Shown here in pieces: positions 7,039 to 9,432 of a stretch of DNA of 14,864 bases (positions are counted from its first letter, which is position 1; each line of letters opens with the position of its first letter). The DNA lies in the IMG/VR virus record IMGVR_UViG_2703718837_000007; one strand, given 5' to 3'. The position numbers and the translations under genes are program-made. The notes under the pieces are model-generated. The model was given only the letters and a program-made list of their open reading frames with translations, had not been told where the DNA came from and made no database searches. This DNA is from a virus (Duplodnaviria > Heunggongvirae > Uroviricota > Caudoviricetes).

Positions 7039-9432
7039 ATGGCTAATTACCGTGATTTGTTAGAGCAGGCTGGCGCACGTTACGGTGTGCCAGAAGGGTT
7101 GATGACTGCACTGGGTGCCAAGGAGTCTTCTTACAACCCTGCCGCAGTAAGCTCCGCCGGGGCTGTAGGATTGACTCAGGTCATGCCTGGGACATGGCGT
7201 GATATGGGTTATACCGATGAGCAAATGCAAAACCCCGAATATCAGGCTGACGCTGGCGCGCGCTATCTGGCAAAGATGTACCAGCAGTTTGGTAACTGGC
7301 GTGACGCTCTTCAGGCTTATCACGACGGTCCCGGCAACGTTATGAAGGCAAAGCGTGGTGAATATACGCCAGGACCTGAAGGCCGCGGTTACGTTGATGA
7401 TCGCTTTGCTCAATGGGCGGGTGACCCGGTGACAGACTCAACAGTCGAACAGCGCGCCACCTCTGCAAAGGTACATCCTCAGCAAGACCCTAACAACCCG
7501 TTTGCACAACTGGAAGCACAGTCATCCGAACAAGTATCGGCATCAGGCGTGCAGTCAGACCCAAATAATCCATTTGCTCAGATTGAGCAGCAGGCAGCCA
7601 GTCAGCAGCCACCTCAACCCGTAAGTTCTGTCGCACCGAAACCTGTTCAGCAGCAAGGCGGAATAATGTCTGACCTTGGTAATGGACTTGCTGAAACCGG
7701 GCGCGGCTTACTACAGGCAGGAATCAACGTAGCGAACATACCTGCTGAACTCACTGATGCTGTAACAAGCGCGGCGGCTTGGGCTGGCGGTAAACTCGGC
7801 ATTGGCGATGGTACATATCAACCAGCACCACGAGTAACAACGCAGGGATTAGAGCAGGACTTTGGCCTTCAGCAAGGCGCGCTGACTCCACAAACGACAG
7901 AGGGAAGGGTATTTGCTGAAGCATTGCCTTACCTCACTCCTGCTGGCGTTGAGAGAGCGGCAACACAGGCACCAACACTTGCTGGTCGAATTGCTCAGGG
8001 GGCAACTCGCCTTCTAGCAGAAAACGCAGTTGGATCACTTGCTGCAAATAGTGCGAAAGATGATGCGGAAGCACTCGCCACCGATTTAGGCGTTGGTGTA
8101 CTTGCTGGCGGTGCTATTAACGCTGCCGGACGTGGATTAGGTGCTGCTTATCGTGGCGTTCGTGGCGCTATCTCGCCAGAAGCGCAGCAGGCTATCAGAT
8201 TTGCAGAGCGTGAAGGAGTTCCTCTTCACACCACAGACCTGTTACAACCAACTTCCCGCGTCGGAAAAATGGCGCAGACTACAGCAGAAAATATCCCTCT
8301 GGCTGGCACAAGCGGAATGAGAGCAACGCAACAGGAAGCGAGAAGCCAGTTGGTGCAGAGATTTGCCGATAAATTCGGTGAGTATGATCCAGCGGTTGTT
8401 ATTGACAGCCTTAAAGCGAAAACATCAGGAATTCGTCGTGCCGCCGGTAATCGACTGGAGCAGGTTCAGAATGCTATGGCTGGAGTAAACATTCAGCCTG
8501 CGCGAGCAATTCAGCAGATTGATACAGAAATATCTAATCTGCAGAAGCTTGGTAAGGTCGCCGATAACGAGACTATTTCAAAACTTCAGTCCTATCGTGA
8601 TGAGCTTGTTCGCAATGCTGGTCCTGATGGTCCGGTAAATCTGGATTTGAAGCAATTAAGCGACCTGCGCAGCCAGTTCAGAATGGACGTGAAGGGTGAG
8701 CGACCAGTGTTACCAAACCGTTCCGATGCTGCCATTCAGCGCGTTTACAAGGCAATGACTGACGATATCAATGGTGCCATTGGTCAGAATCTTGGCAACG
8801 ATACTCTCCGTAAATATCAGCAGGCCAATGCCGTCTACGCTGACGAAGCGGCGAAACTAAAGAATACCAGGCTGAAGAATGTTATCATGAAAGGCGACCT
8901 GACGCCGGAAGTTGTCAACAACATGCTATTCAGCAAGAACAAATCGGAAATTAAGACTCTGTATAACTCAGTTGGTCGTGTTGGCAGGGCGCAAATGCGC
9001 AATGGCATCATTGGAAAGGCGATGGAGAAATCTGGCGGATCCCCTGACCAGTTCCTTCGACAGCTTAACATCCTGCAAAACCAGACTGGCATCACATTTA
9101 AAGGTCAGGAAGCCGCTTATCTGAAAGGATTGAAAAACTACCTTCAATCCACTCAGCAGGCAGCAAAAGCGGCAGTAACAACACCAACGGGGCAGCAAAC
9201 TATCCCGTTCATTATCGGGTATGGGACGGCAATGAACCCGGCGACAACTGGCGCAGCGGTAAGCTACGGACTTCTTACTCGCGCCTATGAGAGCGAGCCA
9301 TTCAGAAATGCAATGCTCCGAATGGCAAACACCCCACGCGGATCAACAGCGTTTGAGAAAGCCATGCAGCAGGCGCAAAAGGCCATTAACGCCCTGACGC
9401 AGGGGGCTAAGTCTGATGCGTTGTCAGAATAG
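7039..9432 (+). CDS. Ejection (E) protein, gp16-position, 797 aa, with N-terminal family-1 lytic transglycosylase (SLT) domain
   Basis: Residues 20-110 or so: AKESSYNPAAVSSAGAVGLTQVMPGTW...ARYLAKMYQQFGNWRDALQAYHDGPGNV, the canonical SLT catalytic-domain signature with the catalytic Glu in KES. Followed by a P/Q-rich linker and a long Ala/Gly-rich region. Longer than P22 gp16 (609 aa). Confidence 0.8.
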   Translation: MANYRDLLEQAGARYGVPEGLMTALGAKESSYNPAAVSSAGAVGLTQVMPGTWRDMGYTDEQMQNPEYQADAGARYLAKMYQQFGNWRDALQAYHDGPGNVMKAKRGEYTPGPEGRGYVDDRFAQWAGDPVTDSTVEQRATSAKVHPQQDPNNPFAQLEAQSSEQVSASGVQSDPNNPFAQIEQQAASQQPPQPVSSVAPKPVQQQGGIMSDLGNGLAETGRGLLQAGINVANIPAELTDAVTSAAAWAGGKLGIGDGTYQPAPRVTTQGLEQDFGLQQGALTPQTTEGRVFAEALPYLTPAGVERAATQAPTLAGRIAQGATRLLAENAVGSLAANSAKDDAEALATDLGVGVLAGGAINAAGRGLGAAYRGVRGAISPEAQQAIRFAEREGVPLHTTDLLQPTSRVGKMAQTTAENIPLAGTSGMRATQQEARSQLVQRFADKFGEYDPAVVIDSLKAKTSGIRRAAGNRLEQVQNAMAGVNIQPARAIQQIDTEISNLQKLGKVADNETISKLQSYRDELVRNAGPDGPVNLDLKQLSDLRSQFRMDVKGERPVLPNRSDAAIQRVYKAMTDDINGAIGQNLGNDTLRKYQQANAVYADEAAKLKNTRLKNVIMKGDLTPEVVNNMLFSKNKSEIKTLYNSVGRVGRAQMRNGIIGKAMEKSGGSPDQFLRQLNILQNQTGITFKGQEAAYLKGLKNYLQSTQQAAKAAVTTPTGQQTIPFIIGYGTAMNPATTGAAVSYGLLTRAYESEPFRNAMLRMANTPRGSTAFEKAMQQAQKAINALTQGAKSDALSE
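7486..7587 (+). repeat. Two copies of a 10-residue peptide motif DPNNPFAQ[L/I]E within the ejection protein linker
   Basis: Copy 1 at 7486..7515 (gac cct aac aac ccg ttt gca caa ctg gaa), copy 2 at 7558..7587 (gac cca aat aat cca ttt gct cag att gag). Same peptide, 8 of 10 codons differ at the wobble position. Confidence 0.7.

Follow-up and report, generated by a model that had tools for sequence, protein, structure and literature searches.

The window, by which we mean the whole stretch of 14,864 nucleotides of viral DNA that was analysed, carries a P22-like cluster in the order needle, gp14, gp7, gp20, gp16, mnt, tailspike and gtrCBA. Pfam matches identify the neighbouring ORFs as homologues of gene 7 and gene 20, as DUF2824/gp14 and as an Sf6-type needle knob, and the order 26-14-7-20-16 followed by the tailspike region is the same in the window, P22, Sf6 and HK620. 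A reading made from the sequence alone had placed the long gene at 7039 in the gp16 position, and these neighbours bear that out. The ORF at 7039..9432 on the plus strand is complete, encodes 797 amino acids plus a stop and abuts the stop codon of gene 20 with its start. Its product matches phrog_770, annotated as 'DNA transfer protein', with E=1.1e-239, and the precomputed Pfam annotation of the 797-aa protein lists both PF01464 (SLT) and PF26808 (Phage_P22_gp16). The excess of about 190 residues over P22 gp16 that had been estimated amounts to 188 (797 versus 609 aa). A minus-strand ORF at 7060-7413 (117 aa, TTG start) was set aside as a shadow of the gene on the plus strand, for which the support is strong. 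The features of the locus are as follows:

3472..3696, plus strand: 3' remnant of gene 10 (its final 75 codons), marking the deletion of the head genes (Pfam Phage_stabilise positions 395-469 of 469)
5002..5697, plus strand: gene 7 homologue, first ejection protein, 231 aa (Pfam P22_gp7, E=1.5e-132)
5707..7038, plus strand: gene 20 homologue, 443 aa (Pfam Inj_translocase, E=1.3e-67)
7039..9432, plus strand: third ejection protein gene, homologue of P22 gene 16 and Sf6 gene 13 (phrog_770, PF01464 and PF26808)
7039..7422, plus strand: predicted SLT (family 1 lytic transglycosylase, lysozyme-like) catalytic head, aa 1-128 (Pfam, AlphaFold2, Foldseek)
7123..7128, plus strand: codons for the putative catalytic Glu29 (gag) and Ser30 (tct) (alignment with Slt70 and T7 gp16)
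7423..7659, plus strand: linker rich in Q, P and S, predicted disordered, aa 129-207 (pLDDT, composition)
7486..7518, plus strand: first peptide motif, DPNNPFAQLEA, aa 150-160 (linker sequence)
7558..7590, plus strand: second peptide motif, DPNNPFAQIEQ, aa 174-184 (linker sequence)
7651..7662, plus strand: mosaic joint between Sf101-type head and Sf6-type body, aa 205-208, QQGG (identity breakpoints)
7660..9429, plus strand: gp16 body of the Sf6 type, the part conserved among these ejection proteins, aa 208-797 (97% identical to Sf6 gp13 aa 76-665)

By profile, Glu-Ser pair, motifs and predicted fold, the head is assigned to the family 1 lytic transglycosylases (PF01464, GH23). Enzymes of this family cleave peptidoglycan non-hydrolytically and release 1,6-anhydroMurNAc. 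Pfam SLT aligns with aa 7-110 (nt 7057-7368) over positions 2-110 of its 117-position profile, scoring 88.6 bits (E=2.8e-25) where the curated cut-off is 21.3 bits. The sequence-only reading had claimed an SLT domain at 7039-7500 and named a Pfam scan of the N-terminal residues as a check; the match lies within that interval and far above the cut-off, and all three of the motifs quoted there (ES, GLTQVMP and AYHDGPGN) are present as E29-S30, G44-L-T-Q47-V-M-P50 and A93-Y-H-D-G-P-G-N100. In alignments E29-S30 pairs with E478-S479 of Escherichia coli Slt70, and E29 with E37 of T7 gp16. Residues E29, S30, G44, Q47, Y76, Y94 and G97 are invariant across an alignment of 51 SLT homologues, in which the third motif, AYHDG (93-97), departs from the usual AYNAG by H95 at a position where N is near-invariant. 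A sequence search of the PDB with the head returned Slt70, MltC, MltE and T7 gp16; in NCBIfam it is hit by generic lytic transglycosylase models only, all of them under their cut-offs.

In the AlphaFold2 model of the head, pLDDT exceeds 90 as far as about aa 110 and is 85 at 111-120 and 76 at 121-130; the model shows a lysozyme-like all-alpha fold with eight helices within aa 4-128. Slt70, LtgA, Pseudomonas aeruginosa Slt, MltE, MltC and MltF are the best Foldseek matches in the PDB (probability 1.00 each; Slt70 is 33% identical to the head), and all 50 PDB matches listed are lytic transglycosylases. Neither a signal peptide nor a strongly hydrophobic segment was found in the head, which is consistent with delivery by ejection and not by Sec.

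Behind the head, the mean pLDDT per 10-residue block drops to 48-66 from after aa 130 to the end of the linker, which contains 16 Q, 11 P and 10 S among its 79 residues. The two DPNNPFAQ units are written in different codons and thus form a repeat at the peptide level only; TRF detected no DNA tandem repeat in the linker. The protein is a mosaic. Residues 1-206 are 100% identical to gp13 of phage Sf101, the body of which is different; this identity stops at aa 206 (nt 618 of the gene), and identity to Sf6 gp13 sets in at aa 208. Sf6 gp13 in turn carries an unrelated 75-aa head without SLT on the 97%-identical body. The body is about 35% identical to P22 gp16, has no sequence match in the PDB (phmmer, E<=0.01; the PDB includes T7 gp16) and no model in the NCBIfam library. 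Four head types were distinguished in a set of 18 P22-like phages, and A, B and C were each found joined to either body type; the short alternative heads comprise 49-75 aa. By these alignments, the SLT domain is a swapped head that has replaced a short alternative head and not as an insertion or as an addition to a conserved N-terminus. It had been asked whether the domain is an addition relative to P22 gp16 and the Sf6 E-protein: the extra length is real, but no conserved N-terminus has been extended. The statement in the sequence-only reading that such a domain is not a feature of the classic P22 E-proteins was correct, as gp16 of P22, Sf6, HK620, BTP1 and Gally lacks it. No foreign composition was found in the SLT segment, its GC content (0.52-0.56) being similar to that of the neighbours.

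The DNA of the window stems from a deleted E. coli prophage remnant. All genes between ninE and the end of gene 10 are lost, so that head genes are missing, and the region of the late promoter and regulator is likewise deleted; similarity to intact prophages begins at nt 3471-3472. The junction at about nt 3471 was not found in 5426 complete E. coli genomes. A host other than E. coli, suggested by that absence, was rejected on the grounds that identical remnants in draft assemblies are flanked by bioA-ybhB DNA that is 99% E. coli. As the remnant lacks head genes, the SLT-headed gp16 is probably unable to act here, and its gene most likely persists as an intact relic that is not expressed.

For complete phages we consider the following account probable as a whole: a gp16 with a recombined SLT head and tether cuts peptidoglycan at entry, while the window retains a relic of such a protein. 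A short head would have been exchanged, by recombination in the Gln-rich linker, for the 128-residue SLT domain and a flexible tether of about 80 residues. By analogy with the ejection proteins of P22 and T7, the protein would be packaged in the capsid of a phage like IME10 or Sf101 and leave via the tail ahead of the DNA. Once in the periplasm, its SLT head would use Glu29 as acid catalyst to split MurNAc-GlcNAc bonds, yielding 1,6-anhydroMurNAc, and the local widening of the peptidoglycan mesh would allow the gp20/gp16 conduit to reach the inner membrane, where the body would keep its usual gp16 role. The job of the N-terminal domain of T7 gp16 would have been taken on through domain shuffling and not because the two whole proteins share an ancestor. 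Packaging, ejection and local cutting by the tethered head are what we infer as most likely from the related systems: the homologues in P22 and Sf6 are packaged in the virion, ejected before the DNA and required for DNA entry (PMC8402733, PMC10883804), and the analogous domain of T7 acts at entry (PMC8954989). The literature searched holds no demonstration of muralytic activity, virion incorporation or ejection for this protein or a close relative. In P22, the muralytic activity of the virion has been attributed to gp4 (PMC5380687). Given this, and since P22, Sf6 and HK620 infect well without the head, the latter may be dispensable or needed only under certain conditions. In T7, mutants of gp16 E37 show their defect at 20 C and on stationary-phase cells.

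Could the long ORF be an artefact in which faulty sequencing or assembly, or a recent frameshift, joined a separate transglycosylase gene to gene 16? The sole hint within the window is the low-complexity, Gln-rich junction, and a public protein collection does contain rare isolated cases in which some other Pfam domain is fused to the gp16 body (P0037, P0042 and P0043). The idea is refuted in practice by the distribution of the gene. The uninterrupted 797-aa ORF also occurs in IME10 and phiKp_30 and belongs to a protein cluster with 1295 members, the exact protein sequence is present in 202 blocks of a public assembly collection, the head is carried by 70 of 5426 complete E. coli genomes, and the same head sits in frame on two other bodies (911 and 875 aa). 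It is also found in phages that were isolated and propagated, namely IME10, Sf101, Dewey, Huey, APC_JM3.2 and phiKp_30.

The domain might be genuine and still not be an enzyme, serving instead as a peptidoglycan-binding anchor or as a structural collar that places the conduit in the periplasm. Such a role would be in line with the T7 ejectosome, where the homologous domain is also structural and forms 'wings' in the periplasmic tunnel (PMC8954989), and with the off-consensus H95 in the third motif. We nevertheless regard it as improbable, because the catalytic Glu-Ser and all other invariant positions are intact and the head is conserved at 99-100% among phages of four host genera, as would be expected of an active enzyme. 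Even less probable, to our minds, is a function in another stage of the phage cycle, be it lysis and release or assembly. Unpackaged copies freed at lysis could in principle add to endolysin activity, but we found no support for this; the head is fused to a protein with packaged and ejected homologues (PMC8402733, PMC10883804), it lacks a signal peptide, its T7 counterpart acts at entry (PMC8954989), and P22-like phages possess a lysis cassette of their own.

One extension of the favoured account, cutting at entry by a tethered head, concerns gp20. The gene 20 product of the window is 98% identical to Sf101 gp12 and 65% to Sf6 gp12, and its C-terminal allele was seen only together with SLT heads (seven of seven cases, the window included). 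We discount this linkage as evidence for functional coupling; the two genes lie next to each other, and with 98-100% identity wherever it occurs the block may represent one recent lineage. It is conceivable, if rather unlikely, that head and linker of gp16 form a free-standing exchangeable cassette that also docks onto gp20. A parallel exists in T7, in which the N-terminal domain of gp16 and a 'molecular tape' bind the gp15 tunnel. Docking is in keeping with three observations: the SLT head changes bodies yet keeps one gp20 C-terminal allele in every case seen, the two DPNNPFAQ copies of the linker are held at the protein level despite their differing codons, and distant relatives have a similar motif, NxFDQF, beside their SLT domain. 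Were docking to occur, the choice of head, SLT or one of three small ones, would constitute an adaptive module for different cell walls, and a 2022 review according to which P22-like phages lack ejected transglycosylase activity would need correcting on this point.

The SLT-headed gp16 is already known and does not represent a new kind of biology: it is widespread and labelled in GenBank/RefSeq. Sf101 gp13 has been annotated as 'transglycosylase' since 2014, and PGAP assigns the name 'lytic transglycosylase domain-containing protein'. Accordingly, of the suggestion in the sequence-only reading that this may be a distinct E-protein type, the part that holds is the difference in the head from the classic P22 E-proteins; a previously unrecognised type it is not. 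In the literature searched, the Sf101 genome paper included, an SLT domain on the gp16 of a P22-like phage is not discussed; the key comparative paper, which was outside the search (Casjens & Thuman-Commike 2011, Virology 411:393), may describe it. The findings suggest that some P22-like phages meet the peptidoglycan barrier in the manner of T7, with an enzyme on an ejected protein, and they provide a clear case from nature of domain shuffling in ejection proteins, with one head allele on three bodies. IME10, Sf101 and Dewey on the one hand and Sf6 and HK620 on the other offer ready material for finding out when a virion-borne transglycosylase is needed.

Among known systems, the gene 16 product of IME10 is closest, with 99.1% identity over all 797 aa and the same SLT head, linker, Sf6-type body and gene neighbourhood; essentially the only difference is that the copy in the window resides in a deleted prophage remnant. 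In the RefSeq record of IME10 the gene for the 797-aa protein is left unannotated. BEI45442 from phiKp_30 and the 'lytic transglycosylase domain-containing protein' of E. coli prophages (797 aa) are the same protein as that in the window. Sf101 gp13 ('transglycosylase', 911 aa) and its counterparts in APC_JM3.2 (911 aa) and Dewey (875 aa) share an identical aa 1-206. Past the linker, the body of Sf101 gp13 is longer and of the other type (LMQQAGDWLTGG..., like P22/HK620), and the overall identity to the window protein of 48% lies nearly all in the shared head, with little beyond the linker. Sf6 gp13 and P22 gp16 have a homologous body and occupy the same place in the 26-14-7-20-16 order, but bear short heads (53-75 aa) that lack SLT and any Pfam match.

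More distant are the 'transglycosylase / DNA transfer protein' products of Murrayvirus, Skarprettervirus and Sortsnevirus podoviruses (e.g. AZF88790 of Salmonella phage Lumpael, 1008 aa), which carry an SLT domain near the N-terminus with heads 55-63% identical to ours. They are likewise the third protein of the injection module, encoded 3' of gp7-like and gp20-like genes and 5' of the tailspike gene, but differ by a 33-residue leader ahead of the SLT domain and by a longer, different body. E. coli Slt70 and MltC/MltE/MltF (GH23) share fold and catalytic motifs with the head; they are periplasmic housekeeping enzymes of the host with signal peptides, lipid anchors and other accessory domains, whereas the domain in the window is fused to an ejection protein. 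Both here and in T7 gp16 (internal virion protein D), the SLT domain stands at the very N-terminus of the largest of the ejected proteins, and an extended segment comes next. The analogy drawn earlier with T7 gp16 is upheld by the heads, which are 28% identical over 130 aa (pairwise E=1e-10) with the catalytic glutamates in register, but does not extend to the body, for which BLASTP against T7 gp16 revealed no similarity (best E=0.99). By sequence comparison, the protein would thus work like T7 gp16 while standing outside the T7 gp16 family, its large C-terminal part not being homologous.

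The plus-strand gene run of the window is typical of the right half of a P22-like virion module, and the 797-aa ORF in the position of gp16, the third ejection (E) protein, opens with a family 1 lytic transglycosylase (SLT) domain. The features are arranged as follows:

Left of nt 3471, minus strand: early-left-operon genes for a dATP/dGTP pyrophosphohydrolase-DUF551 protein, an Ead/Ea22 protein, DUF7739 and DUF2737 proteins, and Abc2
2785-3192, minus strand: Rv2179c-like exonuclease, 5'-truncated
3283-3458: lone ninE
3472-3696: last 75 codons only of gene 10
3696-4544, plus strand: tail needle with Sf6-type knob
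4544-4999, plus strand: DUF2824/gp14 protein
5002-5697, plus strand: gp7 (Pfam P22_gp7, E=1.5e-132)
5707-7038, plus strand: gp20 (Inj_translocase, E=1.3e-67)
7039-9432, plus strand: 797-aa ORF, beginning immediately after the gene-20 stop codon
After the 797-aa ORF, minus strand: Mnt/Arc-type repressor
9856-12027, plus strand: tailspike with P22 head-binding domain, 723 aa as listed
12065-13585, minus strand: 506-aa multi-pass membrane protein in the gtrC position, matching no Pfam family and a PHROG only weakly
13585-14505, minus strand: gtrB
14502-14864, minus strand: gtrA

The 506-aa protein is presumably a serotype-specific GtrC. Public assemblies call the tailspike at 707 aa, the listed ORF opening 16 codons further upstream, and the head-binding domain starts at residue 17 of the 723-aa ORF, so that the true start is probably an internal ATG near 9904.

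The sequence-only reading had placed an SLT domain with its motifs in this gene and estimated the product to be about 190 residues longer than P22 gp16. All motifs were found, and with 609 aa for P22 gp16 the difference is 188. The Pfam scan it had proposed returned a significant SLT match at aa 7-110 (PF01464, E=2.8e-25, 88.6 bits, cut-off 21.3), far beyond chance. In PHROGs the protein is split, aa 1-207 matching a 'lytic tail fiber protein' (E=2e-144) and aa 108-797 a 'DNA transfer protein' (E=1e-239). The top matches of the head, i.e. the N-terminal SLT part, among PDB sequences (phmmer) are E. coli Slt70 (E=5.8e-11), MltC and MltE, and T7 gp16 is found as well (E=6.5e-4); the catalytic Glu478 of Slt70 is aligned with Glu29 of the head. 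BLASTP against the T7 gp16 N-terminus gave 28% identity over 130 residues (pairwise E=1e-10) in an alignment that is ungapped up to the active site, and Glu29 therefore matches Glu37, the catalytic residue of T7 gp16 (PMC8954989). When the head was aligned with 50 diverse SLT homologues, E29, S30, G44, Q47, Y76, Y94 and G97 were invariant, the sole deviation of the head being His95 at a position with nearly invariant Asn. The AlphaFold2 model built from this alignment is confident for aa 1-128 (eight helices, pLDDT >90 in most 10-residue blocks) and of low confidence (48-66) across most of aa 129-207. The Foldseek matches listed against the PDB are lytic transglycosylases only, namely Slt70, LtgA, P. 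aeruginosa Slt, MltE, MltC, MltF and MltD, each with a probability of 1.00. Examination of the head sequence revealed neither a signal peptide nor a strongly hydrophobic stretch.

Sequence comparison shows the 797-aa protein to be a clean mosaic of two parts. Over aa 1-206 it matches the N-terminus of Shigella phage Sf101 gp13 at 100% identity; in this 911-aa protein, annotated as 'transglycosylase', the same head is followed by a different body. Over aa 208-797 it shares 97% identity with aa 76-665 of Sf6 gp13, whose first 75 residues (MAKAWKDVIASPQYQ...) are unrelated; neither Pfam nor NCBIfam detects an SLT domain in Sf6 gp13. The joint lies at about nt 7651-7662 within a Gln-rich stretch (..PVQQQ/GGIMSDLG.., slash at the joint). 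Genes 20 and 16 from 18 P22-like genomes, the window counted, fall into four gp16 head types and were also typed by body start:

Head A (MKVTANGKTF): P22, BTP1
Head B (MAKAWKDV): Sf6, Gally, HK620, ST64T, VSe13, HF4s, 683R2, 720R6, phiv205-1
Head C (SLT): window, IME10, phiKp_30, Sf101, APC_JM3.2, Dewey
Head D (MAYSREQL): Emek
Body-start type I: G-F/I-M/I-S-D-L
Body-start type II: LMQQAGDWLTGG

Both body types occur with each of heads A, B and C, and three different body remainders carry the SLT head, resulting in proteins of 797, 911 and 875 aa. Pfam finds no domain whatever in gp16 of P22, BTP1, Gally and HK620. The question had been raised whether the SLT domain is an addition. The classic P22 and Sf6 proteins indeed lack it, but given the exchange of heads across bodies it is one of several interchangeable N-terminal cassettes that replaces a head of 49-75 aa, and not an insertion into a conserved protein. 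Rare proteins from a large public collection fuse other Pfam domains straight onto the Sf6-type body, i.e. P22_gp7, the gp20 Inj_translocase N-terminus or PF05766 (P0037/P0041/P0044, 782 aa; P0042/P0077, 767-769 aa; P0043, 776 aa). Decaying prophages have probably given rise to these by in-frame deletion, or they are possibly further head exchanges.

In seven of seven cases, window included, the gp20 allele preceding the SLT head is the same one (443 aa, 98% identity or more within the set); over its last 120 residues it shares just 21-42% identity with any other sampled gp20. Head B stands behind five or three gp20 C-terminal types, depending on the gp20 segment clustered, and the gp20 type of head A is one also found with head B. 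An Sf101-like block spans gene 20 to the gp16 linker (window 5707-7659; comparison loci L001, L003, L019, L020 and L021), after which the body switches. The linkage would fit a contact between head or linker and gp20 like that of T7 gp16-N with gp15; it proves nothing, as genes 20 and 16 are neighbours and the block has the look of a single recent lineage. The linker holds the peptides DPNNPFAQLEA (7486-7518) and DPNNPFAQIEQ (7558-7590), 24 residues apart. TRF detected no DNA repeat here, and since the two copies use different codons at most positions, the conserved unit appears to be the peptide, not the DNA. A similar motif, N(I/V)FDQF, is present both before and after the SLT domain in phage Lumpael (L007:5902-8928), and DPNNPFAQ(L/I)E / N(I/V)FDQF may be a short linear interaction motif.

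Phage IME10 encodes the same protein with 99.1% identity, and the 797-aa protein is encoded by Klebsiella phage phiKp_30 as well. In IME10 (L003, NC_019501) the intact ORF is located at 8001-10394; the RefSeq and GenBank records leave gene 16 and everything from there to the integrase unannotated. Cronobacter sakazakii prophage protein P0093 combines an identical head with a further mosaic body. In the phage collection, a gp16-body homologue occurs in 157 records and a near-identical SLT head in about ten (seven phages). Among 5426 complete E. coli genomes, 70 contain the SLT head, in single copy and chromosomal without exception, under the PGAP name 'lytic transglycosylase domain-containing protein', and 336 contain the Sf6-type body. 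The 797-aa cluster of the large protein collection comprises 1295 member sequences with precomputed PF01464 and PF26808 (Phage_P22_gp16), and 202 indexed blocks of the assembly collection contain exactly the window protein. The 665-aa Sf6-type gp16 proteins (P0038, P0040, P0046 etc.; VSe13 L014:2322-4319) carry the same NCBI/PGAP name; neither Pfam nor NCBIfam detects an SLT domain in proteins built this way, and the name appears to have spread from SLT-headed relatives via the common body.

The supposition of a distinct E-protein type is borne out as far as the difference from SLT-less P22 and Sf6 gp16 is concerned, but public databases already contain and name this type, so that the architecture is known to annotators. 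With these two refinements, replacement cassette and prior database presence, the earlier observation and its interpretation were both correct. The literature searched, the Sf101 genome paper included, does not discuss the architecture; the principal comparison of P22-like virion genes (Casjens and Thuman-Commike 2011), outside that search, may cover gp16 types. A review on virion-associated lysins gives gp4 as the P22 virion lysin (PMC5380687).

The copy in the window resides in a deleted P22-like prophage remnant. The truncated exonuclease, the lone ninE and the gene 10 stump, with junctions near 3192-3283 and 3458-3472, thus mark two deletions, which took out immunity, replication, lysis, terminase, portal, scaffold, coat and gene 4. 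Draft E. coli assemblies (L008-L010) have this remnant between int/xis and ybhB-bioA-bioB, with the 797-aa gene identical; the junction of the remnant is found in none of the 5426 complete E. coli genomes. Needle-to-tailspike ORFs are intact, whereas the region with the late promoter and regulator is lost, and the gene is most likely silent cargo beside the retained gtrABC O-antigen modification genes, still available for recombination into incoming P22-like phages. This context weakens any claim on the window's own copy.

For the protein family, analogy with P22 and T7 makes it likely that the tethered SLT head of ejected gp16 opens the peptidoglycan for the conduit. In P22, about 12 copies of gp16 are packaged, the E-proteins are ejected ahead of the DNA and afterwards form a trans-periplasmic conduit, for which a matched pair of gp16 and gp20 is required (PMC8402733, PMC10883804). 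The N-terminal domain of T7 gp16 cleaves peptidoglycan and decorates the gp15 tunnel (PMC8954989). By this analogy the 797-aa protein would leave the capsid via the tail, the head would refold in the periplasm on its disordered tether of about 80 residues and cut glycan strands locally with Glu29 as acid catalyst, the conduit could then cross the sacculus, and the body would carry out the normal gp16 role at the inner membrane. It is improbable that the head, with the motifs of the domain and His95 as its one departure, only binds and does not cut. That it acts at another stage of the phage cycle seems very improbable for the head of a homologue of gp16, a packaged and ejected protein. An artefactual fusion can practically be dismissed: the modules recur in several combinations, and the fusion is present in isolated, propagated phages.

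Beyond confirmation, the value of the finding lies only in a natural, well-defined series of head-swap variants that experiments can use and in the correction of a generalisation made in recent literature. More distant podoviruses with a P22-like injection module, i.e. Murrayvirus Lumpael, Skarpretter, Sortsne, IME_EC2 and Kosakonia phages, have an SLT domain of 55-63% identity opening the corresponding 1008-aa protein, annotated as 'transglycosylase'. At the sequence level, IME10, Sf101, Dewey, Huey, APC_JM3.2, phiKp_30 and 70 E. coli prophages contradict the statement of a 2022 review that P22-like phages lack an ejected transglycosylase (PMC8954989).
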